NCBI GenBank assembly: GCA_963847595.1
Contig: CAWKAJ010000001.1
Location: forward strand, 601,258 to 665,257
Direction of reading: 5' to 3'
Source: an uncultured Chloroflexia bacterium
Lineage (GTDB): Bacteria; Chloroflexota; Dehalococcoidia; SZUA-161
DNA: 64,000 nt
The notes under the pieces were generated by a model. That model did not search any database. It was not told the DNA's origin and worked only from the letters and a program-made list of their open reading frames with translations. Below, piece after piece: positions 9,773 through 62,212 of this stretch (position 1 is its first letter; every line of letters starts with the position of its first letter). Position numbers and translations under genes: made by a program.

Positions 9773-9773
9773 G

Positions 9774-45898: not shown

Positions 45899-45997
45899 CT
45901 CGCCCCTTTTCATCTTCCCGTGATTATCCGCAACTTAATGCGAACTTATACGATTATCTACCGGCCTCGCTGGAGCTAATAAGCACAGGCCGGCATC

Positions 45998-47950
45998 TCA
46001 GGGGACAGCGATGAGTTTCCGTTGCTCTAGGTCCTGTGCCACCTCGTTGAGCCCCAGCTCCTCGAGCTTCTTCCTCGTCTGCAGGCCGGTGGCAGCGTCC
46101 CACCCTCTTAGCTGATAGTATTTGTCCTTCATCCGCTCGAATTCGGTTCTGTCGACAACCTCACCTTTCCGTGAAATTACTTCCCCGTTCTTTCCCGGCA
46201 AGAGGCACTCAGGGTCGTGGACGTTTGTTTCCAGGGGGGTATTGAAGTAGACCTCCGGAAGCACATCGCTCTCCCTTCCCCTGTGACCTTCCCGGACCCG
46301 TATGGCTCTCTCCAGATTGAAAATTACCTCTCCCATCCTGCGGAGCCCCTCCTCGTCCACCTGTTTTCCAGTTACTGCTGATAGGAGCTTGCTTTCAAGT
46401 GCCGGGTCGCCCACATGGTGAGCCGAGTTCTTGACCGTCATTATCGGGAAGACGTATATGCAGAGAATCAGGCTTGCGATTGCAGACTCGCGATCCTGGA
46501 CCATCTTGGCAGCCAGGGCTTTGCCGTCATAGGTGGAGAAATCCGCGGCGATCTCGCCCCCCAGGAACTCTCTGGCTACGGCGCGCCATACGTCGCTCGT
46601 AACATATGCTCCTTCATCCTTGTGGACCCAGGCCAGCCATCCGCTTAGAGGCTTGATTGTCTCCGCATACTGGTATCTAGCCACTCTCGGTTCCATAGCA
46701 TGGAAAAACGCTATTGGTGAGAAGAGCCTGGGGTCTCCGCCCGGGGGCTCTTCAGCTTTGATGGTGTGTTCGGTAATCATTCCTTCAAGCAGCTCCTTTG
46801 ACCCCCCGCCCACTACGTTGGCAGCGCGGGCTATTCCCAGGGCAAGGGTATCTCCAAAGCCCTCCCTCAGTGATATCTTCTTCACCAGAGTTTGAATAAA
46901 CGCAAGACTCCCCTTTTCAGATATAGGAATGCCTGTACCTTCATCTGTCAGAATGCCCGCTCTCCGGCATCTCCGGAGCCAGGTAATCGATGTCGCGATA
47001 CCGAAAGCATCCAGTCCGTAGTCATCGCAGAGCTTGGTGGCAAGGAACGGCACCTCATTAGCCTCCCCGTAGTATTTGTGGGCCAGCCCCTGATAGAACA
47101 TCGAAGAGCCGCACATGAATTTCCCTTTGGTGCCATCCGATGCTTCGTAGGTTTCTCGCCAGCAACCGTTGCCCCTGCAGCCATAGCAGACCTGTTTCTT
47201 CATGTTCGGGCCGGGTGGAAGTCCCCTGAGAATCATTGTGAGTGGCAGCGGCCCGCCGCTGGTATACTCGCGAATGATATCCGCGAGCTGTCGAAGGCCC
47301 TCCGGATTGGCCGCAGTTGGCCTGTTGCCGCCTCTGACCACGATGGCCTTCAATCTCTTGGAGCCCATAACAGCTCCGAAGCCCCCTGAACCGCTGGCGT
47401 CCTCATCGGCCAGAAGACTGGCAAAGAGCACCCCATTCTCGCCGGCGGGGCCACAAGCCACAACCCTCACCGAGCTTCCCAGTTCCCTCTTTAGAGTGTC
47501 GCGCACCTCGAAGATCCCCTTGCCCCATAGGGCCGAGGCATCCCTCAACTCAATAGTGTCATTCTGTACGAAGAGATAGACCGGTTTGTCCGACCTGCCC
47601 TGGACCACGATCCCGTCATATCCGGCAAGCTTGAGTTGGGCACCCCAGCTTCCCCCAAGATTGCAGGTGCAGAATTGCTCCGGGTTGGTGACCGGTGATT
47701 TTCCGCAAACTGTCCACCTGGAGCCCGATACCCCGGGAAACCCCGCGAGCGGCCCGGTCATGAACATTAGCCGGCTTTCAGGATCCAGGGCGCCTGTCTG
47801 CGGTGAAACCTCATCCCAGTAGATCTTGGCGGCGATGCCCCTTCCGCCTAGAAACCTGTCGGTGTATTCTACTGTTCTCACGTGTGTTATTTCGCCGGAG
47901 GGTAAGTCCACCCTCAGGATTTTTCCGGCATATCCATATCGCGCTGTCAT
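45998..47950 (-). CDS. aldehyde:ferredoxin oxidoreductase family enzyme, paralog 2 (tandem with paralog 1)
   Basis: MTARYGYAGKILRVDLPSGEITHV...DRFLGGRGIAAKIYWDEV. About 650 aa. Confidence 0.9.
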   Translation of the reverse strand: MTARYGYAGKILRVDLPSGEITHVRTVEYTDRFLGGRGIAAKIYWDEVSPQTGALDPESRLMFMTGPLAGFPGVSGSRWTVCGKSPVTNPEQFCTCNLGGSWGAQLKLAGYDGIVVQGRSDKPVYLFVQNDTIELRDASALWGKGIFEVRDTLKRELGSSVRVVACGPAGENGVLFASLLADEDASGSGGFGAVMGSKRLKAIVVRGGNRPTAANPEGLRQLADIIREYTSGGPLPLTMILRGLPPGPNMKKQVCYGCRGNGCWRETYEASDGTKGKFMCGSSMFYQGLAHKYYGEANEVPFLATKLCDDYGLDAFGIATSITWLRRCRRAGILTDEGTGIPISEKGSLAFIQTLVKKISLREGFGDTLALGIARAANVVGGGSKELLEGMITEHTIKAEEPPGGDPRLFSPIAFFHAMEPRVARYQYAETIKPLSGWLAWVHKDEGAYVTSDVWRAVAREFLGGEIAADFSTYDGKALAAKMVQDRESAIASLILCIYVFPIMTVKNSAHHVGDPALESKLLSAVTGKQVDEEGLRRMGEVIFNLERAIRVREGHRGRESDVLPEVYFNTPLETNVHDPECLLPGKNGEVISRKGEVVDRTEFERMKDKYYQLRGWDAATGLQTRKKLEELGLNEVAQDLEQRKLIAVP

Positions 47951-48039
47951 CTCGCTCCTTTTCCCAGGATATCTAGAGGGTAGCATGCGCCCATCTGACT
48001 GTCAATCAGCCTCGTCGGTTCATTGTGCCACAAACACTG

Positions 48040-48290
48040 GAGATGAAGGAATAAAATTTCCCTCCCCTCGAGGGAGGGATTAAAGGGAGGGGGATCTAGC
48101 ATCCGTTTCTGGTGAGCCTTGTCCTGAACTTGCCGAAGGATCGTCGAAGGATGAGGGGGAAGAATTCAACCATAGGGACACAGGGTGCCGTGCCCTTCAC
48201 TTTGCCTTTCGAATTCGTTCATAGCCCCGAAACCCACGACGATAGACGAAACAAGCAGCGTAACCGGACGACGAACCACTCCCTCATCTG
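48040..48290. repeat. mosaic hairpin-repeat region (ccctcccCTCGAGggaggg, cctgtcctga..gtcgaagga, ccacgacgatagacgaaacaagcagcg)
   Basis: Modules match 58551-58566, 59300-59345 and 23945-24000 respectively. Confidence 0.55.
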
Positions 48291-48592
48291 TGTAAAATGT
48301 CGCACCTTCAAGCTGTCACCGGCCAGACTTCCGGATATCGAGTTGGAAACAAGAAAGGTCAAGAGTAGGAACTTCTAAACACACTAGATTCTGAAGCATT
48401 AGCCCAGATTTGACGGGCAATCTCTTACGGCCGATTATCAGGTTCACGCGAGCAGTCGCTTGAGGTCTTCAATAAATTTGTTAAAGTTTTTCACTTTATT
48501 ACTTTCTTCAACATCGTCTTCACAAAGTACATGGCTTCCGTCAAGATGTAGCTCTAGAACAGCTCTGCCATTCTTCATTGGTTCTTTGGGGG

Positions 48593-48820
48593 CTAATCCT
48601 TTGAGTATTTTTCAATGCGCTCTTTAACCCAAACCCAATCTGGGTCGCCGTAATTGAAAAAACATTTGAAATTATCCTTGAGCCACTCGTAATAGTCGTC
48701 TTCAACATATTTGCAGAAAGTCTCGATAAGCACATCCCCAATAATATCCTTAGGTATCCTTATTTCTAAGTCTTCGAGTTGTTCATCTAGGAATTCTTTC
48801 ACAACTTGTCTATCAAGCAT
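48593..48820 (-). CDS. hypothetical small acidic protein (75 aa), AT-rich
   Basis: Sits 24 nt downstream of the 48845-49834 gene on the same strand. No family recognised. Confidence 0.3.
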   Translation of the reverse strand: MLDRQVVKEFLDEQLEDLEIRIPKDIIGDVLIETFCKYVEDDYYEWLKDNFKCFFNYGDPDWVWVKERIEKYSKD

Positions 48821-48844
48821 CTTACAACCTCCCCATATTCCAGA

Positions 48845-49834
48845 CTAATCATGTATTTCTTCCAGAACTAGAGCATTCTTTTGGGGATTGACTTTGTATT
48901 TGATGAGCCTCACCGTTTTTTCTTCAATCGCTTTTCTTTTCCTCCAATATTCGAGCACTCTTTCATCAAATCCAAATCCTACTAGGATGCTCTGAACCAT
49001 TTCAGAATCTCCATCGGCGAGTTTTCTGACTATCCAGTTTTCATATTTTATGATTTGATTAAGGTCTTCTTCGGAAATTTTGCCCGCTTTTAGCTCCATG
49101 CATGTGAACTTATGCAGAATATCAACAGAGTCAATTGTAGTTACATGTGTAAGGAATATATCCATTACCTTGTTAAACGAGGTGGGCACATAATTCAAAT
49201 AGTCTCTATAATCACCAATGAGTTCTTTCAATTTACCGTTTGAAAAGGCCCGCATAAACCAGGCATTAAGACATCCTTCGTATCTTAAGTGACCACTTTT
49301 ATCGGATTCAAGACTCAGAGGTAAGGGTACCTTTTTCGTCAGCAAATAAGGTTGTGGTATGATATCTGGCTTTGCGAAAATAGGATTATTCCTAAGTAAT
49401 AGTCGGATTAACTCTTTTCCCTCATCAGTGGTGATCGGATTGTGTGATTTTTTCGTAACGGTTCCCAAATCAAAGGTCCATATCTTGCCTTTATCTTTTA
49501 AATCCAAAATATCAGCCATCGCAATGGGGGCCGAAAATCTTCTGATTGTTGGTTCAAAGCATACTCTGAACGGGTAAAGTTGGTCTGGATCATCCCAAAC
49601 AGGTGTTGTATCATAGAATGAGTCAGTGGTAATCCTCCACAATCCATAGATGCCTCTATTCTTTACATAGAAGAATACAAAGTCCCCAATCTTGATTCCG
49701 GCAAATCCAGAAATAACTTCTGAATTCGTTTGCTCCGATTTGGCTGAGCCGTGAAATTCAATACCACCATAGACTCCTTTCCTTAAGCAAACGCCAAAGT
49801 TGCTTTCCCCAGCGAGAAAAATGTGATACCCCAT
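48845..49834 (-). CDS. PUA/EVE-like N-terminal domain protein with possible PD-(D/E)xK nuclease C-terminal domain
   Basis: N-terminus MGYHIFLAGESNFGVCLRKGVYGG...IKIGDFVFFYVKNRGIYGLWRITTD resembles EVE/PUA-like domains. The C-terminus contains D...VDILHKFTCMELKAGK, which is (D)-x-ELK-like. The gene lies in an AT-rich islet. The domain calls are by eye only. Confidence 0.5.
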   Translation of the reverse strand: MGYHIFLAGESNFGVCLRKGVYGGIEFHGSAKSEQTNSEVISGFAGIKIGDFVFFYVKNRGIYGLWRITTDSFYDTTPVWDDPDQLYPFRVCFEPTIRRFSAPIAMADILDLKDKGKIWTFDLGTVTKKSHNPITTDEGKELIRLLLRNNPIFAKPDIIPQPYLLTKKVPLPLSLESDKSGHLRYEGCLNAWFMRAFSNGKLKELIGDYRDYLNYVPTSFNKVMDIFLTHVTTIDSVDILHKFTCMELKAGKISEEDLNQIIKYENWIVRKLADGDSEMVQSILVGFGFDERVLEYWRKRKAIEEKTVRLIKYKVNPQKNALVLEEIHD

Positions 49835-50099
49835 AATTAATTCTCTCCTTTTCCGCTAGACTTCAGCAATATAGTGAGCTAATGAAAACCATATCTACAC
49901 TATCATTCGCAAGCGGAATCTTTCTCGCCTCACTGGGGTTATGTCATAACCGATGGCTCTTCTCTTTTCTTCCCCGCATCCCAAACCTCCCCTTCAACTA
50001 AGCATCGGCTCCTTTGCATAGCACATGTTTATTAAGTCTTGTTTTCGCAGACATTATACAGCATGCGTCGAGTTTCAAAAAGAAGTCGTTCCCGAGCGG

Positions 50100-50313: not shown

Positions 50314-50694
50314 GTGCGTAGAAGCAGTAGATTCGTGAAAGAGCGAGACAATTACCCGCTGAGCCAACGGGAGCGAGAAGCACTTATTCTCGCCGCTCGA
50401 GGTATGACTAATAAGGACATCGCTGAACGCTTGTGTACCAGCACAAGCACGGTAAAAGCTATCATACATCAGGCATGCGTTAAGCTCGGAGCACGCAGCA
50501 GAGGGCAGGCGATCGTCATAGTCTTGAAACGGGGCATCGTGCGTACGGACGAGATGTATACCCTGGATGAACTGGCAGATATGCTCTGCTCCCTCGGCTC
50601 ACAAACGATAGAGTCCATAGCTGAAATCGTGAAGCAAAAGTTCGAACAGGTTCGACTGCCTCTGGATGTCGAATCATCCCCTTCCCGACGATAA
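50314..50694 (+). CDS. LuxR/GerE-type HTH transcriptional regulator (small)
   Basis: LSQREREALILAARGMTNKDIAERLCTSTSTVKAIIHQACVKLGA is a clear LuxR-type HTH. GTG start per track. The true start is uncertain. Confidence 0.7.
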   Translation: MRRSSRFVKERDNYPLSQREREALILAARGMTNKDIAERLCTSTSTVKAIIHQACVKLGARSRGQAIVIVLKRGIVRTDEMYTLDELADMLCSLGSQTIESIAEIVKQKFEQVRLPLDVESSPSRR

Positions 50695-50969
50695 TAGAGT
50701 CTCACCAACAACCCATACCCCTTCCTTGCCCCAATTTCCTTTACAAATTATTTAACCATTCCGACCATCTACCACGAAGACCATTCGAAGCTAAACCAAA
50801 GTTATGAACCGAAGTTACTTGAAAATAACGCAGCAATGTGCTATTTCTGTAATCGCCTGCATCAGAGCCAACAATCGGCCCTCATTAGCTTTCAACTGGC
50901 CTCAGTCAGATAGCAGTTGATTTGATTCGATCGAGTTGGAGGAGCACAGAGTCTTCGGAGGTGCGAGCA

Positions 50970-53141
50970 ATGGCAACCGCGGAAAAGGCGTACTACGTTG
51001 GGACCGATATGAATTGCGGCGGGGCCTGCCTGCTGAAGGTGCATGTGAAAGACGGCGTGATCACACGCCTGGAGACTGACGACGGCGATGAGCCGCAGCT
51101 CAGGAACTGCCTCCGCTGCCGGGCATATCGCCAGAGGGTATATGCCCCTGACCGGCTTCTCTACCCGATGAAAAGGGTGGGCGAGCGCGGCGAAGGCAAG
51201 TTCAAGCGGATATCGTGGGACGAGGCGCTTGATACCGTAGCCAGCCAGTACAAGAGAGTCAAGGAGACCTATGGCCCTGCAGCGATGATATATCTCACCA
51301 CGGGTGGTGACATCGGTCAGGTGCACAACACCAGGACTGCAGTGCGAGTCTTCTGCCTGGCTGGAGGTTGCACCCTGATGTGGGGCGTAGCCTCTAACGA
51401 GGGATGGATGTTTGCCTGCCAGGCCACCTACGGCTATCCGGTAGGCAACGACCATCGCGACCTGCCGAACTCCAAGCTTGTGATCCTGTGGGGCATGAAT
51501 CCGGCCGTTATCATCGATGGCTGTGGCACGGCCTACCATCTCGCTCTTGCCAGAGAGAAAGGCACGAGATTTATCGTAGTCGATCCCAGATATACCGATA
51601 CAGCGGCCCTGGTCGCTGACCGCTGGGTTCCCATCAGGCCGGGCACAGATGCCGCCGCCATGATCGCCATGGCCTATGTCATGATTACCGAAGACCTCTA
51701 CGACAAGGAGTTTATTAACAAGTACACCGTAGGCTTCGATAAGTTCAAGGATTACGTCCTCGGCCGGGAAGACGGCGTGCCCAAGACACCAAAGTGGGCC
51801 GAGGCTATCACCGGCGTCCCTGCCCGTACCATAGTCGAGGTAGCCAGGGAATACGCCACCATTAAGCCGGCGGCCTTGTTGCCCAGCAAAGGCCCCGGGC
51901 GCACAGCCTTCGGTGAGCAGTTCCATCGCGCAGCCTTCACGCTTGCGGCGATGACAGGCAACATCGGCAAAAGCGGAGGCAGCGCAGGTTCTGAAATTAC
52001 GCAGCGTGGCGAGATCCCGTTCGCCATGGGACCGGCCATGAAAACGGGAGGCAACCCGGTTGATGCTGGCTCGCCGATGCGCAAAGACGCCCTTCCTACG
52101 CCGATCTCGAAGGGGCCCGGGCTGGTGGCGCGGCTGCATAATTCTGAGATTTGGGATGCCATACTCAAAGGCAAAGCCGGCGGCTACTACAGCGACTACA
52201 AGATAGTGTACATCGCCAACTGCAACTACCTCAATCAATACCCCAACGTGAACAAAGCGGTTGAGGCGATGAAATCCCTGGAGTTCATCGCTGCGCAGGA
52301 GCAGTTCATGACTCCCACGGCGAAGTTCGCCGATATTATTCTGCCTACCTGCACCTTCCTCGAGCGCAACGATGCCGTATGGGGCGCGGGACCGCATGTT
52401 GCCTATCAACCGAAGGTCATCGAGCCCCTTGGCGAATCGCGTTCGCACCTGTCGATATGCGATGACCTTGCTGCGAAATTGGGCATCGTCGGCTACAACG
52501 ACAAGACCGACGAACAGTGGCTGGAACAGATAATGACACCATGTGTTGGCGACTTCGAGAAATTCAAAGAGACCGGCGTGAAGAAATACTATAATCCGCC
52601 GTCCATCCCGTTCAAGAAGGAGATCGGGGACATCGAGAATAGCCCCTTCCCCACGCCATCGGGGAAGATTGAAATCTTCAGCCAGCAAATCGCTGACATG
52701 AACAACCCGTTAATACCTCCCATCCCGAAATATATAGAAACTTGGGAGAGCCGCAACGACCCGTTGGCGAAGAAGTATCCTATCCAGATGACCAGCACGC
52801 ACCCCAAGAGACGCTCCCACAGCCAGTTCGACAACATACCCTGGCTACGGGAGGTCGATCCTCAGGTGATATGGCTGAATGGGAAAGATGCCAAAGCCAG
52901 AGGAATAAAGGACGGAGACCTGGTGAAAGTTTTCAATGACAGGGGCCAGGTTATAATAAAGGCCAAGATTACCGAGAGAATCATGCCCGGCGTCGCCGAC
53001 CTGCCCGAAGGTGCATGGTATAATCCCGACAAGAAGGGCGTCGATCACGGGGGCTGTGCCAACGTGCTGACCATCGACAAGCGCTCTCCCGGTGGCGCGT
53101 TTACCAGTAACTCATGCCTGGTACAAGTAGAGAAAGCATAG
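50970..53141 (+). CDS. molybdopterin (bis-PGD) oxidoreductase catalytic subunit, DMSO-reductase superfamily, cytoplasmic
   Basis: 723 aa. N-terminal Cys cluster (NCGGAC...RNCLRCRAY). No twin-arginine signal. Molybdopterin-binding and C-terminal beta-barrel regions. RBS GGAGG. Confidence 0.85.
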   Translation: MATAEKAYYVGTDMNCGGACLLKVHVKDGVITRLETDDGDEPQLRNCLRCRAYRQRVYAPDRLLYPMKRVGERGEGKFKRISWDEALDTVASQYKRVKETYGPAAMIYLTTGGDIGQVHNTRTAVRVFCLAGGCTLMWGVASNEGWMFACQATYGYPVGNDHRDLPNSKLVILWGMNPAVIIDGCGTAYHLALAREKGTRFIVVDPRYTDTAALVADRWVPIRPGTDAAAMIAMAYVMITEDLYDKEFINKYTVGFDKFKDYVLGREDGVPKTPKWAEAITGVPARTIVEVAREYATIKPAALLPSKGPGRTAFGEQFHRAAFTLAAMTGNIGKSGGSAGSEITQRGEIPFAMGPAMKTGGNPVDAGSPMRKDALPTPISKGPGLVARLHNSEIWDAILKGKAGGYYSDYKIVYIANCNYLNQYPNVNKAVEAMKSLEFIAAQEQFMTPTAKFADIILPTCTFLERNDAVWGAGPHVAYQPKVIEPLGESRSHLSICDDLAAKLGIVGYNDKTDEQWLEQIMTPCVGDFEKFKETGVKKYYNPPSIPFKKEIGDIENSPFPTPSGKIEIFSQQIADMNNPLIPPIPKYIETWESRNDPLAKKYPIQMTSTHPKRRSHSQFDNIPWLREVDPQVIWLNGKDAKARGIKDGDLVKVFNDRGQVIIKAKITERIMPGVADLPEGAWYNPDKKGVDHGGCANVLTIDKRSPGGAFTSNSCLVQVEKA

Positions 53142-53149
53142 AGGTATCC

Positions 53150-53380
53150 CTGTAGGGGCACAGTGCACTGTGCCCTGTAAGTCTCCCAAGACTGGAATTA
53201 ATGGATTGTTACTGAAAGGGGAGTGCAGAGGGGAAAGTCCCCTCTGCCAGGGGTTTGGGGGTGTCCCCCAACCCCAAAATCCCCCAAGACTGGGGGACAC
53301 AGGGGGTTGAAAAGGCCTTATCGAAGACCTAGTCGATTAACAATTAGGGGAGTCCGGAGGGGAAAAGCCCTTCTGGCGGA
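53150..53380. repeat. H4 hairpin (gtaggggcACAGTGCACTGTgccct) + family A triple hairpin copy 4 + partial extra copy, within operon
   Basis: ggggagtgcagaggggaaagtcccctctgccaggggtttgggggtgtcccccaa...cccccaagactgggggacacagggggttgaaaagg ... ggagtccggaggggaaaagcccttctggcgg. Confidence 0.7.
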
Positions 53381-53388
53381 GGAATACG

Positions 53389-53967
53389 ATGCAAACAGGA
53401 TTTTATTTTGACCAGACACGGTGCACCGGCTGCTACACTTGCGTGATAGCCTGCAAAGACTGGCACGACGTGCCGGCCGGCCCGGCCAGTTGGAGAAGGG
53501 TTCTAACCATAGAAGAAGGCAAATTCCCGGATGTGTTTGTCGCCTGGCTTGCCACCTCCTGCTATCACTGCGCCAAGCCTGCCTGCGTCGCAGCGTGTCC
53601 TGCCGGAGCTATCACGAAAAGGAAAGAGGATGGCATTGTAGTCGTTGACCCGGCTAAGTGCCTGGGCAAAGACAAGTGCGACCTCTGCCTGCAATCGTGT
53701 CCCTATGGCGCTCCGCAGTTCGGGGCCGAGGTGAACGCCAAGATGCAAATGTGCAACCTATGCTTTGACCGGCTGAAGGAAGGGAAGAAACCCATCTGCG
53801 TGGCCGGATGCCCCATGAGAGCGCTGGACGCCGGCCCCATTGATGAGCTTCGAGCGCGGTATGGGGATAAGACTGAGGCCGTGGCCTTCACCTGTTCTGC
53901 CGACTTGAAGCCGTCAGTTATCTTCAAGCCCAAGCCTAGAAAGAGCGTGGTGGGGGCAAGAAAATGA
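53389..53967 (+). CDS. 4Fe-4S dicluster electron-transfer subunit (DmsB/HybA-like)
   Basis: 192 aa with several CxxCxxCxxxCP-type motifs (CTGCYTCVIAC, CYHCAKPACVAACP, CDLCLQSCP, CVAGCP). Confidence 0.85.
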   Translation: MQTGFYFDQTRCTGCYTCVIACKDWHDVPAGPASWRRVLTIEEGKFPDVFVAWLATSCYHCAKPACVAACPAGAITKRKEDGIVVVDPAKCLGKDKCDLCLQSCPYGAPQFGAEVNAKMQMCNLCFDRLKEGKKPICVAGCPMRALDAGPIDELRARYGDKTEAVAFTCSADLKPSVIFKPKPRKSVVGARK

Positions 53968-55910
53968 AGGAGCACTACGGATACGCCGGGAAAATCCTGA
54001 GGGTGGACCTGTCCTCAAAGAAGATAACCACCGTGCCCACCGCACAGTATTCCGATAGGTTCCTCGGGGGCAGAGGTATCGCCGCCAAGATTTACTGGGA
54101 CGAAGTGCCGGCTAAAGTCAAGGCCTTCGACCCCGAGAACCGCTTAATATTCGTCACCGGGCCGCTGGCCGGAATCGGCGGGCTGTCCGGCTCAAGGTGG
54201 CAGGTTTGCGGCAAGGCACCCGCCATGTATCCGGAGGAGTTCTCCTACTGCAACCTCGGCGGCAGATGGGGCTGGCAGCTCAAGTGCGCCGGGTACGATG
54301 CCCTCGTCATTGCGGGAAAATCTGAAAAGCCCGTCTATCTGTTTATCCAGGACGACAAAGTGGAGATAAGGGACGCTTCCGCACTCTGGGGCAAGAGCAC
54401 AGTCGAGACTCGCGAAACCCTGAAGAGCCAGTTCGGTAGCAGCTTCGCAGTGGTGGCCTGCGGCCCTGCGGGGGAGAACCTTGTATCATACGCCATCGTT
54501 CTCGCCGACAACGACGCCAGTGGCTCCAGCGGCTTCGGCGCAGTCATGGGTTCCAAGAACCTCAAGGCCATCGCGGTGAGAGGCCAGGGAAAAGTGAACG
54601 CAGCCAATCCTGAGAGGCTGACTGAGGTAAAGAAGAACGTCCGCCAGTTGTTGTGGAAGGGGCCGGATTATCAAAAAGAGATTGGCAAACCCGAGGCCCA
54701 TATCGAGGTCGTATCCGGTCAGAAAACGAAGCTCGACCTTTGCCTGGGCTGCGCCGGATTCGATGGAAGGATAACTATAGAATCCCGGGACGGCACAAAG
54801 AAGGGCAAGTCCCTCTGCGGCTCCTCGCTGTTCTACCTCGATAAGGTCAACAAGTACTACCCTGAACCGACGGAGACTACTTTTTATGTCAACAGGCTCT
54901 GCGATGAGTACGGCGTTGATGCTCTCGCCATCGAATCGATGATGAAATGGCTCTCGAGGTGCCGACATACAGGAATCCTGACGGACGAAAATACCGGCAT
55001 CCCCCTGTCCAAGCTGGGAAGCTGGGAGTACATGGAAGCGCTGGTCAGGAAAATGGCGCTCCGCGAAGGCTTCGGCGACGTCCTGGCCCTGGGCATACAG
55101 AGGGCAGCCGCAACTCTGGGCCCTAAAGCCGAGGAACTGGTCGGCGACTATATATCGAAGGCCGGTCACCTGCTCAGCTATTGCCCGCGCACCTTCCCGG
55201 CTCACGGCCTGCTCTACGCGATGGAGCCGAGACAGGCTGTGAACCAGTTGCACGAGATGGGACTTGTCCTGTTCCAGTGGGTCAACTGGGCCAATAATCC
55301 CGAAAACTCCTATCTCTCCAGTGACGTATTCCACAAGATAGCTGCCAGGTTCTGGGGCAGCGAGCTTGCGGCTGATTTCTCGACGTACGATGGCAAGGCT
55401 CTGGCAGCGGCCGCCATTCAGGACCGCGAGTACGCCAAGGAATGCCTCATCCTCTGCGACTTCACCTGGCCGGTAACGCATACTATGGAAGGAGACCACA
55501 TAGGCGATCCCTCCATAGACAGCAAGATGCTTGCCGCAGTCACCGGACGCGATATAGACGAACGCGGACTCTACCGCATCGGGGAAAGAGTGTTCAACAT
55601 GCAGCGCGCCATACACATCAGGGAAGGACACAAAGGCAGGGAAAGCGACATGATTCCCGAAGCCCTTTTCACTACCCCGCTCAAGGGCAACGAGATGAAT
55701 CCCAAAGCCCAGGCCCCGGGCAAAGACGGTGCGATTACCTCGAGGGTCGGCGTGGTGGTGGACAGAGCGGAGTTCGAGCGGATGAAGAGCGAGTATTATC
55801 AGCTCAGGGGATGGGACGTGGCCAGCGGCCTGCAAACCGTAAAGAGGCTGAAGGAACTCGACCTCGCCGAAGTCGCTCATGACCTGGGGCGCATGGGCCT
55901 CGCCCTGTAG
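53964..55910 (+). CDS. aldehyde:ferredoxin oxidoreductase family enzyme, paralog 3 (start overlaps FeS-subunit stop)
   Basis: MKEHYGYAGKILRVDLSSKKITTV...DRFLGGRGIAAKIYWDEV. 648 aa. Confidence 0.9.
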   Translation: MKEHYGYAGKILRVDLSSKKITTVPTAQYSDRFLGGRGIAAKIYWDEVPAKVKAFDPENRLIFVTGPLAGIGGLSGSRWQVCGKAPAMYPEEFSYCNLGGRWGWQLKCAGYDALVIAGKSEKPVYLFIQDDKVEIRDASALWGKSTVETRETLKSQFGSSFAVVACGPAGENLVSYAIVLADNDASGSSGFGAVMGSKNLKAIAVRGQGKVNAANPERLTEVKKNVRQLLWKGPDYQKEIGKPEAHIEVVSGQKTKLDLCLGCAGFDGRITIESRDGTKKGKSLCGSSLFYLDKVNKYYPEPTETTFYVNRLCDEYGVDALAIESMMKWLSRCRHTGILTDENTGIPLSKLGSWEYMEALVRKMALREGFGDVLALGIQRAAATLGPKAEELVGDYISKAGHLLSYCPRTFPAHGLLYAMEPRQAVNQLHEMGLVLFQWVNWANNPENSYLSSDVFHKIAARFWGSELAADFSTYDGKALAAAAIQDREYAKECLILCDFTWPVTHTMEGDHIGDPSIDSKMLAAVTGRDIDERGLYRIGERVFNMQRAIHIREGHKGRESDMIPEALFTTPLKGNEMNPKAQAPGKDGAITSRVGVVVDRAEFERMKSEYYQLRGWDVASGLQTVKRLKELDLAEVAHDLGRMGLAL

Positions 55911-55934
55911 TAGCTTTAGACCAAGGAGGTATTT

Positions 55935-57140
55935 ATGCCCAAGCAACCTCTATCAGACGTTCGAGTGCTCGACCTGACCTGGCACATAGCCGGGCCTGCC
56001 TGCACCAAGTTCTTTGCCGACTACGGTGCTGACGTCATCAAAATTGAAAGGCCGGATGGGGGAGATCCGTCCCGGAGCCTGGGCCCCTTCTACAAGGACG
56101 ACCCTCATCCCGAGAAGAGCGGCCTGTTCCTGTTCCTCAACACCAACAAGCGCAGCATCACCCTGAACCTGAAAACCCATACGGGGCAGAAGATACTCAA
56201 AGAGCTTGTCAAGGATGTGGATATCCTGGTCGAGAACTTCAGCCCCCGTGTCATGCCCGGCCTCGGCCTGGACTACGAGACCCTGGAGAAGCTTAACCCC
56301 GAACTAGTCATGACCTCCATCTCCAACTTCGGACAGACCGGCCCGTATCGCGATTTCAAAGCGTCGGAAGCCATCATCTATGGCATGGGCGGGGCCATGT
56401 GCAGCACCGGAGTCGGTGACTGCGAGCCTGTCAAGAAGGGCATGAACGTCATCCAGCACCAGGGAGGGTACATGGCGGCTACGGCTACCATGATTGCATT
56501 TTATGCTGCCAGGATGCAGGGAGTTGGAGAGCATATTGACGTCTCGCTGATGGAGACCCAGATGGCCGCCATCGATAGAAGGATGAGCGAACTCCTGGCC
56601 TACGAGTATAACAAAGAGCTGACCCCCCGGATGGACATAGCGGGGATGCTTCAGTATCCCTACGGCATCTTCCCCTGCAAAGACGGCTACGTCGATGTCG
56701 CGGGCGGCTTTATGTTCCTGGACCGTATCGAAAGGGTGCTCAAGATGGCCCTCATGGAGACCTACGGCGGGGCGAATCAGTTCGACGAGGCACGCAGAGA
56801 GGAGTTTCTGGGCACTATCTGGTACCCCTGGCTGATGGAGCGAAGCCGGAAAGAGATTGTTGAGGTCTGCCAGGAAGGGCGCGTTTTGAGCGCTCCCATC
56901 AATACCACCGAAGACCTCGTGGCTGACCCCCAGTTCCGTGAGAGGGGCTTCTGGGCCGAGGCCGAGCACCCCGTGGTGGGCAAGCTGACCTATCCCGGCA
57001 GGCCCGCCATATGCTCGGAGTTGCCCTGGAAGATAAGGCATCCCGCGCCGCTGCTGGGTCAGCACAACGCAGAGGTCTATACCTCCCTGGGGTACTCGAA
57101 GGGGGACCTGGTGAAACTGAGGGAAGGGGGTATCATCTAA
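55935..57140 (+). CDS. family III CoA-transferase (CaiB/BaiF-like)
   Basis: MPKQPLSDVRVLDLTWHIAGPACTKFFADYGADVIKIERP. RBS AAGGAGG. Confidence 0.9.
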   Translation: MPKQPLSDVRVLDLTWHIAGPACTKFFADYGADVIKIERPDGGDPSRSLGPFYKDDPHPEKSGLFLFLNTNKRSITLNLKTHTGQKILKELVKDVDILVENFSPRVMPGLGLDYETLEKLNPELVMTSISNFGQTGPYRDFKASEAIIYGMGGAMCSTGVGDCEPVKKGMNVIQHQGGYMAATATMIAFYAARMQGVGEHIDVSLMETQMAAIDRRMSELLAYEYNKELTPRMDIAGMLQYPYGIFPCKDGYVDVAGGFMFLDRIERVLKMALMETYGGANQFDEARREEFLGTIWYPWLMERSRKEIVEVCQEGRVLSAPINTTEDLVADPQFRERGFWAEAEHPVVGKLTYPGRPAICSELPWKIRHPAPLLGQHNAEVYTSLGYSKGDLVKLREGGII

Positions 57141-57141
57141 G

Positions 57142-58473
57142 ATGGCTAAGCTACCGCTGGAAGGCGTAAGGGTTGTGGGCATGACCCAGATGTGGGCCGG
57201 CCCCATCGTCGAGATGCACCTGGCCGACTGGGGTGCCGAGATAATCAAGGTCGAGTCCATTCACTATCTCGCCGTCGGCACCAGGGGCCCCGCTCCCAGG
57301 CATCCCAAGTTCGCTGTTGATTTCGTCAAGGGCGGCTATGCCGCCTATCTCAAAGAGGGTTACGACGAGACCAAATGCAGGCCCTGGAATCTGAGCTGCA
57401 TGTTCAATGTGCATGGCCGCAACAAATATTCCTGCACCGTGGACTCCGTCAAGCCCGAGGGCAAGGAAATAATCAAGCGCCTGATACAGGTGAGCGACGT
57501 TTTCATCGAGAACAGCCAGCCCGCCGTCATGGAGGACTTCGGCCTCACCTACGACGTCATCAGCGCCTGGAACCCGAATATCATCATGCTCTCCATGTCC
57601 GGCTTCGGCCAGACCGGCCCCTACAAGTACTTTCGCTCTCTCGGCGCCCATCAGGATGCCTTCCTGGGGCATACCTATCTCAGGGGCTATGCGGACCGGG
57701 ACGTGACGGCAAACTCGGCAATCTACCATTGCGACGAAGCTTCAGGAACAATCGGTGCCTTCATGGTTGTTATGGCGCTGCACCAGCGCAACAAGACAGG
57801 CAAGGGCATGTTCATCGACATGGCGCAGACCGAGGCCACCATGATCCAACTGGGTGAGGCCATCATGGACTACACCATGAACAGTCGCATCACCGAGAGG
57901 ACCGGGAACCGCGACCTCTACGGCGGCATCCAGGGCTGCTACCGCTGCCGCGGCGAGGACAGATGGGTAACCATCGCCATCCGCACCGATGAGGAATGGC
58001 AGGGCTTCTGCCGTGCCCTGGGCAATCCCGGGTGGACCAAGGACGACAGGTTCGCCGATAGCCTGAGCAGGTGGCGTAATCAGGAAGAGTTGGACAAACA
58101 CATCGGCGAATGGACCGGCCGGCATGAAGCCTTCAAGGTCATGAACACCCTGCAGAAAGAAGGCGTAGCTGCCGGCCCGGTAGAGCACCCGGACGATGCC
58201 TACAACGACCCGCAGATGAAAGCGCGGGGCTTTTTCGAAACGGTAACTCAGGCTGAATGCGGGACACACAGATACCCCGGCCTGGCATTCAGGATGTCCA
58301 AGGCGCCCAACCATTTCCGGCTTCCTCCCGTCCGTCTGGGCGAGCACAACGAATACGTCTATAAGAAGCTTCTCGGCTTCTCCGACGCAGAGTATGCTCG
58401 CCTGGAAAAAGAGGGGCACATAGGGATGGACCTGGTGCCCGATATCGTAATCGGCAAATACAAGCCCGAATAA
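57142..58473 (+). CDS. family III CoA-transferase (CaiB/BaiF-like), 443 aa with insertion
   Basis: MAKLPLEGVRVVGMTQMWAGPIVEMHLADWGAEIIKVES. Starts 2 nt after the previous stop. Confidence 0.88.
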   Translation: MAKLPLEGVRVVGMTQMWAGPIVEMHLADWGAEIIKVESIHYLAVGTRGPAPRHPKFAVDFVKGGYAAYLKEGYDETKCRPWNLSCMFNVHGRNKYSCTVDSVKPEGKEIIKRLIQVSDVFIENSQPAVMEDFGLTYDVISAWNPNIIMLSMSGFGQTGPYKYFRSLGAHQDAFLGHTYLRGYADRDVTANSAIYHCDEASGTIGAFMVVMALHQRNKTGKGMFIDMAQTEATMIQLGEAIMDYTMNSRITERTGNRDLYGGIQGCYRCRGEDRWVTIAIRTDEEWQGFCRALGNPGWTKDDRFADSLSRWRNQEELDKHIGEWTGRHEAFKVMNTLQKEGVAAGPVEHPDDAYNDPQMKARGFFETVTQAECGTHRYPGLAFRMSKAPNHFRLPPVRLGEHNEYVYKKLLGFSDAEYARLEKEGHIGMDLVPDIVIGKYKPE

Positions 58474-59546
58474 TGTAGGGGCGACCGGCTGGTCGCCCTC
58501 TCCCAAATCCCCCCTTTTGCAAAGGGGGCAAGGGGGATTTTAGCCTCCTCTCGCCCCTGGAGGGAGAGATAAGAGTGAGAGGGATAATCCGTTCGCCCTG
58601 AATCCTTCTGTGGTAGGACAGGCTCCCCAGCCTGTCCCTGACCTGATCAGGGAGCACGAATCCAGGTGCCCTTCTCTTGTCATTGCGAGTCCTTCTCTGG
58701 AAGGACGAAGCAATCTCACCGCGCCTGTCTTGAGCCCCTGACAACGTACAACATGCCATTCCTGCGCAAGCAGGAATCCAGGTGCCCCCATATGTCATTG
58801 CGAGGAGTCCTTCAAGGAAGGACGACGCGGCAATCTCACCGGCCCCGCGTGACGCCCTAACGGGTAGGTTGGAGCACCCGCTCCAACCAGGTAGGGGCAC
58901 AGTGCACTGTGCCCTTCTGTATGTCATTGCGAGTCCGCCTCGGGCGGACGAAGCAATCTCCTCGTCATCATTCCGTAGGGGCAGACCCATGTGTCTGCCC
59001 GAATCTGAGAATAGGGTCGGTGCTCCGCAACCGACCCTTTCGTAGGGGCAATTCATGAATTGCCCCTTTAATGTCATTCCTGCGCAAGCAGGAATCCAGG
59101 CGCCCCTAATTTTCCCTCCCCTGGAGAGAGAGAAAAGCCTGTCCTGAGCCCCTGACAACGTACAACATATCATTCCTGCCCTGAGCAGGAATCCAGGCGC
59201 GCCACGAACCAATCCCCCCTTTTGCAAACTTGTCCCTAACTCGTTCAGGGAGGGGGCAAGGGGGATTTTAGCCTCCTCTCGCCCCTGGAGGGAGGGGGAT
59301 AATCCGTTCGCCCTTAGCCCTGTCCTGAGCCCCGTCGAAGGACTGTCGAAGGGCTATCCTTAATTGGGTAGCTTGGAGCACCCGCTCCAACCTCGTAGGG
59401 GCACAAGGCATTGTGCCCAAAAACGTAGGGGCGAGGGCCCTCGCCCCGGGATCCGAAGAGCGACTTCTTTACTGCTGATCGGGGTATCGCAGCATGTTAC
59501 TGATCTCCCGTTAAAATAACCTTTCGCATTAAATCCGACTAGTTCG
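58474..59546. repeat. about 1.07 kb ORF-free array of more than 20 short hairpin-repeat modules (H1, H3, H4, H5, H6, H7 families)
   Basis: Examples: gtaggggcGACCGGCTGGTCgccctc, tgtcattgcgag..gcaatctc (x3), cattcctgcgcaagcaggaatccagg (x3), gtaggggcACAGTGCACTGTgccc, gtaggggcAGACCCATGTGTCTgccc, gtaggggcAATTCATGAATTgcccct, ggtaggttggagcacccgctccaacc (x2), cccccctTTTGCAAA...gggggg (x2). The track's 312-aa ORF here is repeat-derived. Confidence 0.85.
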
Positions 59547-60998
59547 CTACGCTGCGCTGCAATATTCGCTATATCTTACCAGGTGAGCAAGTATTTTAGC
59601 TGATTCTTCCGGGTCAGGGTAGAGATTTAGATGGCTCTGCTTCAATGTCAGAGGAACCGTGCCCTGAGTTTCGAAACGCGCTGCTCCAACGGTGAAAAGG
59701 ACGGGCTTACGGTGTTTTGCCATAAGCTCAATAGTCGTCTTTATGTTCTCAAGCTCAGGTTCCTCCATTTGCATTCCCACCTCTTGAGTAGCCTTTTTCA
59801 TCAACGGTGGTGCCCACGTAGCGTAGCCGGAGGTCATCGCGACACCGCCGATAACCAATATGGCGTCGAAATTCTCATCCTCTATCATTGGCCAGAGAGC
59901 CTGGTAGCTGACGAAGTCCCCGGCAGGATCGACTGGGTTTCCTCCGGACCACCTTCGCGACATCATAGACTCCAATTTCTCCATAGTAGCTGCTGACAGA
60001 GGGGGCAGTTCTAAACCCTCTTTCCTCAAGGCGTCTGCGGCGATGACTGCCATCCCACCGCTCATAGACAGCACTCCTACCCTTCTCCCCCGGGGCAGCG
60101 ACTGACCCAGCAAAGCCACAGCGACATCTATCATTTCGTGAAGCTTCTCCACCCGGATCACACCGCACTGCTTGAACGCAGAATCGAGCGTTGCATCCGA
60201 TCCTGCCAGAGCAGAGGAGTGAGACCGCGCTGCCCTGCTCCCGACATCCGTACGCCCCACCTTCATAATGACCATGGGCTTCTTTTTTGTTATTTCCCTT
60301 GCCAGTTCAAGGAAACGCTTGCCTTCTCTGAAGCCTTCTACGTAACCCAGGACAACCTCGGTTTTCTCATCCTGAGCCAGATACTCCAGATAGTCTTCGA
60401 AGCGCAGGTCGCCCTCGTTTCCGCTGCTGATAAACTTGCTAAACCCGACTCCCATCTGCAGCCCGTAATCGAGTATTGCCTGGCCCGAGTTCCCGCTTTG
60501 AGAGATGAGCGCCACATGACCTCTCTCGATAGGGGGCATGAAAGGCACAGTGCAGAATTCTGCGTACGGGTTACAAAACCCCAGGCAGTTCGGACCTATG
60601 AAGCGTATACCGCCTCGCCGGGCGATTTCAACCGCCTCCCGTTGTATTCTTGCGCCTTCTTCACCTGTCTCGGCAAGACCGCCGGAGATAATGACAGCGC
60701 TCTTGACTCCCTTTCTAACGCAGTCTTCCATAGCAGCGGGGACATCCTGAAACGGGACCGTTATCACAGCAAAATCCACTGGCCCGGGCACTTCAACCAC
60801 GCTCATATAAGCTTTCATCCCCATCACTTCGGCTTCCCTGTTGTTGACCGCGTAAATCTCTCGCCCCTGCTTATGGCTCAGTACGCGGCTTAGCACGTTG
60901 TATCCCCACTTACCGAAGTTGTTAGAAGCCCCGATGACCGCCACTGCCCTAGGATTGAACAAATTATCCAACTGCTCTTTTAGACTCATGTTGCTCAT
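59547..60998 (-). CDS. NDP-forming acyl-CoA synthetase alpha-domain protein (CoA-binding + succinyl-CoA-ligase-like domains)
   Basis: NPRAVAVIGASNNFGKWGYNVLSRVL...RFIGPNCLGF pattern of ADP-forming acetyl-CoA synthetase and related enzymes. The start is set at MSNMSLKEQ (RBS GGGAGAGG). The track ORF begins at 61052. Confidence 0.85.
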   Translation of the reverse strand: MSNMSLKEQLDNLFNPRAVAVIGASNNFGKWGYNVLSRVLSHKQGREIYAVNNREAEVMGMKAYMSVVEVPGPVDFAVITVPFQDVPAAMEDCVRKGVKSAVIISGGLAETGEEGARIQREAVEIARRGGIRFIGPNCLGFCNPYAEFCTVPFMPPIERGHVALISQSGNSGQAILDYGLQMGVGFSKFISSGNEGDLRFEDYLEYLAQDEKTEVVLGYVEGFREGKRFLELAREITKKKPMVIMKVGRTDVGSRAARSHSSALAGSDATLDSAFKQCGVIRVEKLHEMIDVAVALLGQSLPRGRRVGVLSMSGGMAVIAADALRKEGLELPPLSAATMEKLESMMSRRWSGGNPVDPAGDFVSYQALWPMIEDENFDAILVIGGVAMTSGYATWAPPLMKKATQEVGMQMEEPELENIKTTIELMAKHRKPVLFTVGAARFETQGTVPLTLKQSHLNLYPDPEESAKILAHLVRYSEYCSAA

Positions 60999-61095
60999 GC
61001 TACCTCTCCCACCCTGGGTTGACGTTTCCCCCGAAAACAGTAGCACCGCCATTTAGAGTCCTCCGCTATAATAAAACGAAAGAGGAGGGCTCATC

Positions 61096-61362: not shown

Positions 61363-62183
61363 AGCCCGGGGCCAAACGCCTGGCAGTTTCCCATGCCAGG
61401 GAGAGTCTTGGGCTGAGCGAAAGGAAAGCCTGCCTGCTGGTCAATATTTCGGCTTCGGTATATCGCTATAGGCCGAAATCGGATAGTGATGTTGCCCTGC
61501 GTCAGCGTTTACGGGAGCTGGCAGGACAGAGAAAACGGTTTGGCAGTCCCCGGCTCCACATTTTGCTGAGAAGGGAGGGGCTGGTGATTAATCACAAGCG
61601 GACAGAGAGGATCTATCATGAAGAGGGATTGGCGCTGAGGAGAAAGAGGCGTAGGAAAGGTGCTGCCGGGTTGAGGGTAATCATGCCATCACCGCAGAGG
61701 CCAAACCAGCGCTGGTCCATGGATTTTGTTACTGACAGCATCGTCACCGGGCGGCGTTTTCGCGCCCTTGCCATCGTGGATGACTACTCCCGGGAATGTC
61801 CCGTCATCGAGGTGGACACTTCACTGGGTGGTGCCAGAGTGGTGAGTGTGCTGGAAAGGCTAGCTGAAACGAGGGGATTGCCTAACGTAATTACCACGGA
61901 CAATGGGCCGGAATTCGCAGGGCGGGCACTCGATGAATGGGCATACTGTAAGGGCGTGAAGCTGAACTTCATCCGGCCGGGAAAGCCAATTGAGAATGCC
62001 TATGCCGAGAGCTTCATCGGCAGGCTCAGGGACGAGTGTTTGAACGAGAACTGGTTTATGAACCTGAAGCATGCCCGGGACATCATCGAAGACTGGAGGA
62101 GGGATTACAACGAGGTCAGGCCACACAGCTCATTGCACGGTAGGGCTCCCATGGAGTATGCTGAAACAGCGGCTGGGCTCTAA
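61353..62183 (+). CDS. IS3-family transposase OrfB (integrase/DDE rve core), expressed as an OrfAB fusion by -1 frameshift
   Basis: The -1 frame reads KLLKPGAKRLAVSHARESLGLSERKACLLVNISASVYRYRPK... It continues into the listed ORF (61563-62183), which has DDE-integrase hallmarks (WSMDFVTD, ITTDNGPEF, ENAYAESFIGRLRDECLN). No internal stops are seen. Confidence 0.85.
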   Translation, partial: KLLKPGAKRLAVSHARESLGLSERKACLLVNISASVYRYRPKSDSDVALRQRLRELAGQRKRFGSPRLHILLRREGLVINHKRTERIYHEEGLALRRKRRRKGAAGLRVIMPSPQRPNQRWSMDFVTDSIVTGRRFRALAIVDDYSRECPVIEVDTSLGGARVVSVLERLAETRGLPNVITTDNGPEFAGRALDEWAYCKGVKLNFIRPGKPIENAYAESFIGRLRDECLNENWFMNLKHARDIIEDWRRDYNEVRPHSSLHGRAPMEYAETAAGL

Positions 62184-62212
62184 TAGCCGGTGATACTAAT
62201 ACCGGGGGAAGG

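Follow-up and report, generated by a model that had tools for sequence, protein, structure and literature searches.

A five-gene module of uncultured Dehalococcoidia encoding a DmsAB-type molybdoenzyme, a predicted cysteine-ligated AOR/WOR-family protein and a putative BbsEF-type CoA-transferase

A stretch of 64,000 nt from an uncultured Dehalococcoidia bacterium (assembly GCA_963847595.1, contig CAWKAJ010000001.1, positions 601,258 to 665,257; hereafter the window) carries a five-gene module that encodes a DmsA-type molybdenum (Mo) enzyme, an iron-sulfur (FeS) subunit, a protein of the aldehyde:ferredoxin oxidoreductase (AOR)/WOR family, termed AOR3, and two family-III CoA-transferase subunits, CoAT_A and CoAT_B. 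We read the module, at a probability of about one half, as a catabolic unit for a bulky acid that is handled as its CoA thioester and undergoes redox tailoring other than aldehyde oxidation. What was observed, and what this reading builds on, is which genes the module contains, which residue-level features they show, how well the module is conserved and where it lies in the genome, including its acyl-CoA neighbours in relatives; the substrate class and the direction of each redox step are what we infer. No description of the five-gene module or of the cysteine-type WOR clade to which AOR3 belongs was found in the literature searched.

Organization and conservation of the module

The genes called in the initial annotation of this DNA, which were those for a LuxR-type regulator, a 723-aa Mo enzyme, a 192-aa FeS protein, a 648-aa AOR and two CoA-transferases, were all present as open reading frames (ORFs) on the plus strand (Table 1), and every domain call for the operon proteins was backed by Pfam and NCBIfam. 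The ATG at 50970 was taken as the start of the Mo gene, the ORF of which opens at a TTG at 50922; the orthologues are all 722-724 aa in length. The stop codon of the FeS gene overlaps the start codon of the AOR3 gene by 4 nt, and the spacing between CoAT_A and CoAT_B is 1 nt. Two further paralogs in the window, AOR1 and AOR2, are 59% and 55% identical to AOR3, respectively.

Related loci, 9 derived from genomes and 22 from metagenomes, were mapped by tblastn of the reference protein set. The order Mo-FeS-AOR3-CoAT_A-CoAT_B was kept in every mapped locus with sufficient contig reach. The operon of the initial annotation is thereby supported as a real operon-like unit and no generic Fdh/AOR cluster. 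Identity to AOR3 was 65-97% across the module loci and that of the closest Mo homologues was 73-95%, and all of these loci belong to uncultivated Dehalococcoidia; one of them (L011) comes from SZUA-161, the metagenome-assembled genome (MAG) that gives its order its name. The overlap between the FeS stop and the AOR3 start was found in most module loci, and the gap between the Mo and FeS genes was mostly 10-20 nt, reaching 150-250 nt in some close relatives. Three loci (L013, L047 and L056) have no FeS gene, the Mo and AOR genes being adjacent at a distance of 37-100 nt; either the FeS subunit is dispensable there or the two pterin enzymes are in direct contact.

The genes that recur at the flanks of the module encode a thiolase, an acyl-CoA dehydrogenase, an SDR, a HadAB/MaoC hotdog pair or a crotonase, a FabK-like reductase and a Zn-dependent alcohol dehydrogenase (Zn-ADH), and L056 additionally encodes an SCP-x thiolase, a DUF35 protein and a further CoA-transferase. 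Across the relatives, the flanking genes cover all Bbs-type β-oxidation functions, a context that suits the pathway proposed at the outset, in which an aromatic or alicyclic acid would be handled as an acyl-CoA.

Electrons may pass between the two pterin enzymes by way of the shared FeS subunit. Such an exchange is suggested by the gene order, the translational coupling, the absence of any other carrier gene from the module, the fact that Mo and AOR stay neighbours where the FeS gene has been lost, and a change of one cluster ligand that is specific to the AOR3 orthogroup (described below). A bolder proposal is that the Mo enzyme and the cysteine-ligated WOR protein form one soluble two-pterin complex, in which the four-cluster subunit would act as the wire, or direct cluster-to-cluster contact would take its place where the FeS subunit is missing; electrons from a water-dependent hydroxylation at one pterin centre would be spent on a reduction or dehydroxylation at the other, resulting in a redox-neutral, carrier-independent acyl-CoA conversion. 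This proposal is tentative and, as a whole, rather unlikely. A similarly low probability is given to the opposite view, that both enzymes serve one acyl-CoA pathway independently, each on free ferredoxin and without a shared wire or complex. The occurrence of the Mo-FeS pair without AOR3 in L001 and in many distant homologues, the solitary position in genome context of AOR1, AOR2 and most other paralogs, and the three loci without an FeS gene would all suit independent enzymes, but that view leaves unexplained why the Mo-AOR3 adjacency survives FeS loss, why the coupling of FeS and AOR3 translation is conserved, why the module has no other electron carrier and why the cluster-ligand change is confined to the AOR3 orthogroup.

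Cysteine-type AOR paralogs

Residues were mapped by comparing a 24-sequence family profile with solved structures and by a MAFFT alignment with PfAOR, FOR, two bacterial AORs, BamB and E. coli YdhV. In the profile, the C-x2-C-x3-C motif of the family falls on Cys288, Cys291 and Cys295 of PfAOR, and the Cys that is invariant in the family (Cys285 of AOR3) falls on Cys322 of BamB. An exact-sequence look-up of AOR3 in public assemblies gave no record. A single alignment column is occupied by Cys285 of AOR3, Cys283 of AOR1, Cys292 of AOR2, Cys322 of BamB, Cys336 of YdhV and Glu313 of PfAOR; Cys285 of AOR3 is thus predicted to be the metal ligand (W or Mo), and a Cys fills this column in 116 of the 120 homologues retrieved.

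According to a 2026 WOR classification, Thr243, Glu313, Tyr427 and His448 (PfAOR numbering) are the hallmarks of aldehyde oxidisers (PMC13328260). The segment bearing Thr243 is deleted in all three paralogs. At the position of His448, AOR3 has Asn, AOR1 His and AOR2 Tyr, and at that of Tyr427 they have Tyr, Tyr and Gly, respectively. The 619-aa AOR encoded in L001, used as an internal positive control, showed the complete canonical second-shell set. A 2025 review confines the Cys ligand to the BamB and YdhV clades, both of which are devoid of the aldehyde second shell (PMC12096430), and CsWOR41L of clade 41 (the YdhV clade), the only assayed enzyme of its Cys-ligand clade, oxidised none of 46 aldehydes (PMC13328260). 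With Cys in place of Glu313, the Thr243 segment missing and the His448 position variable, the AOR paralogs are unlikely to oxidise aldehydes. The "aldehyde/acid" step that had been assigned to the AOR does not hold up against the missing second shell in all three paralogs and the inactivity of CsWOR41L on 46 aldehydes.

The position of the family was estimated from a rough neighbour-joining (NJ) tree (415 columns, 200 bootstraps, few references). The Chloroflexota AOR family was monophyletic with 100% bootstrap support, and canonical AOR/FOR split from the group of the Chloroflexota family, BamB and YdhV with 97%; support for the Chloroflexota family as the sister of BamB or of YdhV was 18% and 7%, respectively. 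By alignment and tree, all three paralogs are placed in a large, separate Chloroflexota clade. Grouping with canonical aldehyde-oxidising AORs, which the initial annotation had named as the outcome that would speak against it, was therefore not observed.

The paralogs are longer than the archetypal AORs of about 605 aa, as had been pointed out before, and the excess is real but composite: approximately 32 residues are lost relative to the 605-aa PfAOR (PfAOR 241-272), and insertions in domain 3 (AOR3 residues ~424-518 and 560-600) outweigh the loss. All four cluster-ligand Cys residues (Pf C288, C291, C295 and C494) are present in AOR1 and AOR2, and AOR3 has Asp at C295. At this third position, the sequences at least 62% identical to AOR3 (n = 21) have Asp (10), Gly (7) or Asn (3), one being truncated and none having Cys; the Cys is kept in 87 of 87 scorable paralogs of lower identity. 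The AlphaFold2 (AF2) model of AOR3 (pLDDT 78.7) showed the WOR fold, with TM scores of 0.72-0.76 to 1aor, 1b25, 9g7j, 4z3w and 8c0z. Comparison of folds was uninformative for telling BamB-like from AOR-like proteins, the TM score being ~0.75 to all WOR structures.

BamB, the class II benzoyl-CoA reductase (BCR), resembles the family in the AOR/WOR fold, the Cys ligand in the same column and the absence of Glu313, His448 and Thr243, and its use of a CoA-thioester substrate and a polyferredoxin partner subunit is a further likeness to the module. However, the Chloroflexota family is a separate clade with 32-33% identity to BamB, lacks a linker of about 44 residues (BamB 240-283) and has the additional insertions in domain 3, and the AOR3 orthogroup is short of one cluster Cys. 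The earlier description of the paralogs as closer to BamB-type enzymes is right as to the metal-ligand Cys; a sister relationship to BamB is not supported by the rough tree (18% bootstrap). E. coli YdhV (WOR clade 41, class V) shares the Cys336 ligand and the lack of an aldehyde second shell, and its model PRK09849 gave the top NCBIfam match, but with 307 bits against a cutoff of 868 and an identity of 28-30%. YdhV systems, moreover, face the periplasm or are associated with the membrane and include the Tat-dependent WorS and cytochrome subunits, whereas the module is predicted to be soluble and cytoplasmic. Some clade-41 operons of Coriobacteria also encode an additional pyranopterin subunit without an assigned role (PMC13328260).

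An aldehyde pathway along the lines of the initial annotation was weighed against these results. The Mo enzyme would hydroxylate the substrate, an ADH encoded elsewhere would form the aldehyde, AOR3 would oxidise it to the acid as an aldehyde:ferredoxin oxidoreductase, and the CoA-transferases would follow. The Zn-ADH gene that adjoins the module in L001, L002 and L011, the retention of Tyr427 in AOR3, and L001, where a canonical AOR in place of AOR3 and the CoA-transferases suggests functional replacement, speak for such a route; the loss of Glu313 (to Cys), of the Thr243 segment and of His448 (to Asn) in AOR3, a Cys metal ligand known only from the non-aldehyde clades (PMC12096430), the behaviour of CsWOR41L and the 97% split from AOR/FOR make it doubtful.

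The molybdoenzyme and its iron-sulfur subunit

The Mo enzyme has the architecture Molybdop_Fe4S4, Molybdopterin and Molydop_binding (27, 189 and 98 bits in Pfam). It scored 673.5 bits against TIGR02166 (dmsA_ynfE), below the curated cutoff of 777.7, and the FeS protein scored 188.5 bits against TIGR02951 (DMSO_dmsB), below the cutoff of 214.1. The identity between the Mo enzyme and E. coli DmsA (EcDmsA) is 42.7% over 705 residues, and the 45-residue twin-arginine translocation (Tat) leader of DmsA is missing. No Tat motif or hydrophobic segment was found in any operon protein, in keeping with the Tat-less, cytoplasmic Mo enzyme of the initial annotation.

The metal-binding residue, for which either Cys or Ser had been considered, is predicted to be Ser. 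Ser142 of the Mo enzyme aligns with Ser147 of the R. sphaeroides dimethyl sulfoxide (DMSO) reductase (DMSOR) and with the Ser in "GDYSS" of EcDmsA, is conserved in the family and is predicted from this alignment to be the Mo ligand; its context is "GVASNEG" in the Mo enzyme versus "GDYSSAQ" in EcDmsA. The solved structures that match best are the Rhodobacter DMSO and trimethylamine N-oxide (TMAO) reductases, yet the positions of DMSOR Tyr114 and Trp116 are occupied by Thr and Gly. The FS0 motif has Thr for its first Cys and an additional Cys in "CLRC". Loss of the first FS0 Cys was dropped as a module-specific trait, the position being Thr, Ala or Cys among module members, and is therefore given no weight. 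The FeS protein aligns with EcDmsB through all four Cys groups, and its gene is found behind the Mo gene even in homologues with as little as 50% identity. Its C-terminal tail was discarded as a signature of docking to AOR3, as L003 has the tail but no AOR3.

Three other identities were rejected. The formate dehydrogenase (Fdh) alpha model gave 279 bits against 673 for DmsA, the ligand is Ser, and the matches to Fdh structures in the Protein Data Bank (PDB) were far weaker; acetylene hydratase (PDB, 174 bits) and transhydroxylase (PDB, 229 bits) likewise scored lower and are at odds with the Ser ligand. From these sequence features, the Mo-FeS pair is assigned as a soluble cytoplasmic DmsAB-type enzyme, as opposed to a formate dehydrogenase or a DMSO reductase of respiration, which agrees with the earlier view that the cluster is not a generic Fdh cluster.

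Among the closest known systems are E. coli DmsAB(C) and YnfEF (type III DMSO-reductase family), which share with the module the succession of FS0, Mo-bisPGD domains and dinucleotide-binding domain (43% identity), the Ser metal ligand and a four-cluster DmsB-type partner encoded directly downstream. Unlike E. coli DmsABC, the module has no Tat leader, DmsC anchor or DmsD chaperone gene, scores below the family cutoffs, does not keep the active-site Tyr and Trp equivalents, varies at the first FS0 Cys and is surrounded by acyl-CoA genes. A DmsC-like gene was found in none of about 30 loci.

An anaerobic reductase for DMSO or other S- or N-oxides, serving respiration or repair and merely co-located with AOR3 and the CoA-transferases, would account for the DmsA/YnfE and DmsB models as top family matches, the DMSO and TMAO reductases as top structures, the conserved Ser ligand and the source annotations, which read "anaerobic dimethyl sulfoxide reductase subunit A". 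It is nevertheless very improbable, given the missing Tat leader and DmsC anchor, the two NCBIfam scores below cutoff, the Thr and Gly at the Tyr114 and Trp116 positions, the invariant linkage to AOR3 and the CoA-transferases in about 30 loci, and the location of other family members among acyl-CoA genes.

An enzyme of the DmsA type that works on acyl-CoA may have a better precedent in PadBCD of Thauera/Aromatoleum, a DmsABC-like Mo-FeS enzyme for the water-dependent oxidation of a CoA thioester (cited in PMC5109826). It is the best mechanistic precedent available, by analogy only: PadBCD has its own membrane subunit, PadD, and reduces quinone, whereas no PadD- or DmsC-like gene was found in the module loci. 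A Dehalococcoidia "phenylacetyl-CoA:acceptor oxidoreductase" was annotated in earlier single-cell work (PMC4959651).

The distant Mo homologues (50-64% identity), which include sequences from Desulfobacterota and an Asgard archaeon, mostly retain the FeS partner only. A Desulfobacterales homologue (61%, L057) has no FeS gene and lies between genes for a crotonase (ECH) and a carboxyltransferase, and the neighbours of the distant homologue in L003 encode an OYE, an SDR and an acetyl-CoA transferase. Taken together, the cytoplasmic DmsA-like proteins form a large and diverse radiation of soluble molybdoenzymes. Other architectures were also seen: L030 and L032 (~58-60% identity) encode FeS, a glyoxalase/VOC protein, Mo, an optional second VOC protein and a second Mo paralog, and L031 encodes Mo, FeS and a rhodanese.

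The CoA-transferase pair

CoAT_A and CoAT_B were compared with 9fn0, the PDB entry of the succinyl-CoA:(R)-benzylsuccinate CoA-transferase BbsEF. CoAT_A scored 182 bits against chain A and 115 bits against chain B, and CoAT_B scored 167 bits against chain B and 86 bits against chain A. In the column of the catalytic Asp169, aligned with E. coli Frc, YfdE and CaiB, CoAT_B has Asp ("YHCDE") and CoAT_A and its orthologues have Gln; in the BbsEF structure, the same column holds Tyr in chain A and Asp in chain B ("NYTDH"), the register of chain B in the HMMER alignment being off by one residue at the catalytic Asp. CoAT_B also carries an N-terminal insertion of about 30 aa.

The reciprocal chain matches and the asymmetry of the catalytic Asp favour reading the pair as a single BbsEF-type heteromer with one type of catalytic subunit, a homologue and not a demonstrated orthologue of BbsEF (about 30% identity). 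The two CoA-transferases, first listed as separate enzymes, thus look like a single one. As in BbsEF, the family-III genes are an adjacent pair, each chain has its own match, and Asp occurs in one subunit type only. The genes bbsG, bbsH, bbsCD and bbsAB are mirrored in the relatives by genes for an acyl-CoA dehydrogenase, a hydratase, an SDR and a thiolase with or without DUF35. The differences are that no benzylsuccinate synthase is encoded nearby, that most of the hydratases are MaoC/hotdog proteins and not crotonases, and that CoAT_B has the N-terminal insertion. No glycyl-radical enzyme was found in the window or in any mapped locus. For the SZUA-161 order, degradation of aromatics has been predicted via BssA-like enzymes and class I BCR, with occasional "BamB" calls (PMC10570749).

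That AOR3, and perhaps the other two paralogs with it, is a true BamB that dearomatises benzoyl-CoA made by the CoA-transferase is hardly credible: the Cys322-equivalent ligand, the missing AOR second shell, the adjacent CoA-transferases and the "BamB" scores given to similar genes in Dehalococcoidia MAGs are outweighed by the absence of BamC to BamI from all loci, the 18% bootstrap and 32-33% identity, the ~44 missing residues and a Cys-to-Asp/Gly/Asn change in the AOR3 orthogroup that is hard to square with electron delivery near -600 mV. The bifurcating BamC to BamI module, with its Hdr-like and NuoEFG-like genes, was found neither in the window nor in related loci.

Proposed role of the module

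The acid handled by the module would probably be aryl-, alicyclic- or alkyl-substituted and possibly dicarboxylic. The BbsEF-type heteromer would first activate it, with succinyl-CoA or the product thioester as CoA donor, CoAT_B acting as the catalytic subunit and CoAT_A as its non-catalytic partner. The two soluble cytoplasmic pterin enzymes would next carry out redox tailoring beyond the reach of ordinary β-oxidation enzymes. The DmsAB-type Mo enzyme would plausibly catalyse a water-dependent hydroxylation or oxidation, like that of PadBCD on phenylacetyl-CoA, and the Cys-ligated AOR/WOR enzyme would perform chemistry of the BamB/YdhV type and not aldehyde oxidation. The product would then enter β-oxidation, the genes for which flank the module in many relatives and would lie elsewhere in this genome. 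BamB is a Cys-ligated tungsten enzyme that reduces benzoyl-CoA and, together with PadBCD, provides the mechanistic precedents. Both would serve the two pterin enzymes as precedents by analogy; membership of AOR3 in BamB itself is unsupported.

Several points weigh against this proposal. Neither the β-oxidation genes nor the DUF6144 pair found upstream of the Mo gene in relatives (see below) is present in the 64-kb window, and the context of the pathway thus has to be taken from the related loci. The locus L001/L010, from the closed genome CP070819, consists of two DUF6144 genes, Mo, a truncated FeS gene of 152 aa, β-oxidation genes and Zn-ADH, and it has the canonical Glu313-type 619-aa AOR without AOR3 and the CoA-transferases; this arrangement could mean that AOR3 fills an aldehyde-related slot. 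Furthermore, the module holds no glycyl-radical enzyme, ring-cleaving hydrolase or transporter, its gene content names no substrate, and the identity to BbsEF is only about 30%.

Accessory genes and other features of the window

In relatives, one to three DUF6144-like genes usually lie directly upstream of the Mo gene. L033, whose AOR3 is 97% identical, has the LuxR gene, two DUF6144 genes and then Mo onward, and its LuxR protein is 96% identical and in the same relative position. The DUF6144 pair (region 3715-5093 of L033) is missing at 50695-50969 of the window, where the operon leader is ~1.1 kb shorter, so the strain of the window has lost the pair by a deletion of about 1.1 kb. A DUF6144-like protein encoded elsewhere in the window is paralogous to those encoded ahead of Mo in orthologous loci. 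Its invariant residues are Cys 72, 126, 128, 143, 145 and 177 and His102, and it may bind metal, either Zn or an FeS cluster. The AF2 model (pLDDT 74.8) matched Bet3, H-NOX and the PoxR/MopR sensor domain in Foldseek (E = 3e-5 to 1e-3, TM ~0.5), which supports, with moderate confidence, a ligand-binding fold of the V4R/Bet3/H-NOX type. The match to the Zn-containing phenol-sensing domains of PoxR/MopR hints at a hydrophobic or aromatic ligand. A literature search on the function of DUF6144 found nothing.

The coordinates of the module and of neighbouring features are listed in Table 1.

Table 1. Position and assignment of features in the window
Feature	Position (nt)	Strand	Basis
AOR1, 649 aa, Cys-type paralog	43964-45913	-	Domain, alignment, tree
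AOR2, 662 aa, Cys-type paralog; real start probably ~12 codons further downstream	45998-47986	-	Domain, alignment, tree
DUF6144-like small protein	40138-40725	+	32% identity to L002 DUF6144b
LuxR/GerE-type small helix-turn-helix regulator, 126 aa, without sensor domain	50314-50694	+	PF00196 GerE, E = 3e-13
DmsA-type Mo-bisPGD catalytic subunit, 723 aa	50970-53141	+	Pfam, NCBIfam TIGR02166
Mo-FeS spacer, ~248 nt, REP/MITE-like short repeat units	53142-53388	no strand	Sequence and repeat analysis
DmsB-type FeS electron-transfer subunit, 192 aa, 16 Cys, four Cys groups (4 x [4Fe-4S])	53389-53967	+	TIGR02951
AOR3, 648 aa, Cys-type AOR/WOR family	53964-55910	+	AFOR_N and AFOR_C domains
CoAT_A, family-III CoA-transferase subunit, 401 aa	55935-57140	+	PF02515
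CoAT_B, predicted catalytic subunit of family-III CoA-transferase, 443 aa	57142-58473	+	Match to 9fn0_B, Asp kept
Mosaic (~1 kb) of interspersed short repeats closing the operon	58474-59546	no strand	13 direct-repeat families
Convergent gene after the repeats, like ADP-forming acyl-CoA synthetase alpha subunit	59547-61052	convergent	Pfam/NCBIfam

The repeats of the Mo-FeS spacer and of the mosaic that closes the operon comprise 13 families of 14-53 nt, some with copies that are 100% identical and lie about 700 nt from each other. One unit of the spacer, the hairpin GGGGCACAGTGCACTGTGCCC, occurs again at ~58897 and, slightly diverged, at ~59400. These elements also give rise to a spurious 312-aa ORF on the minus strand (58289-59227) with "IPACAGMT" repeats. 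No Rfam match to a Moco/Wco riboswitch or any other RNA element was obtained anywhere in the window.

A long operon on the plus strand (28477-42033) includes genes for an acetyl-CoA hydrolase/transferase, the alpha and beta subunits of a 2-hydroxyacyl-CoA dehydratase (no activator gene was seen), the alpha, beta and gamma subunits of a 2-oxoacid:ferredoxin oxidoreductase, a 560-aa thiamine diphosphate (ThDP) enzyme, a D-2-hydroxyacid dehydrogenase, the DUF6144-like protein and two family-III CoA-transferases. It looks like an Fld/Had-type pathway for aryl- or branched 2-hydroxyacids, and its content is consistent with a region devoted to the catabolism of arylalkanoates or 2-hydroxyacids. One biotin carboxylase and three carboxyltransferase-domain proteins are encoded at 1833-5583 and 25033-28232; these point to acyl-CoA carboxylase or decarboxylase activities, which might be part of the same catabolic network. 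A row of genes at 10573-14704, encoding an FGGY-family kinase, a 437-aa RuBisCO-like protein (RuBisCO_large domains) and a saccharopine-dehydrogenase-like protein, may represent a RuBisCO-like-protein pathway of sugar or nucleoside salvage.

Three islands at 8000-10000, 48000-50000 and 62000-64000 have a GC content of 38-42%, compared with ~54% elsewhere, and are probably mobile or defence insertions. Their ORFs encode a Zn-ADH-like protein (8297-9286), an EVE-domain protein (48845-49834, minus strand) and an rve integrase fragment (61563-62183) beside a SIR2_2 protein (62213-63106, minus strand). Kinship between the two 329-aa ORFs of these islands was rejected, one being Zn-ADH-like and the other an EVE-domain protein.

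Implications

Dehalococcoidia are among the most abundant bacteria of anoxic sediments and the subsurface, and their genomes contain thousands of paralogs annotated as "DMSO reductase" and "aldehyde:ferredoxin oxidoreductase", labels that are commonly taken to mean DMSO respiration and aldehyde oxidation. For the module described here, at least, neither label is likely to be correct. Should the module act on recalcitrant aromatic or alicyclic acids, it would represent a new oxygen-independent route of their breakdown and a source of new Mo/W biocatalysts. Its five genes offer enzymologists a defined expression target. The two-pterin complex, if it exists, would be a previously undescribed hybrid enzyme and would add a third functional Cys-ligated AOR/WOR clade to those of BamB and YdhV.

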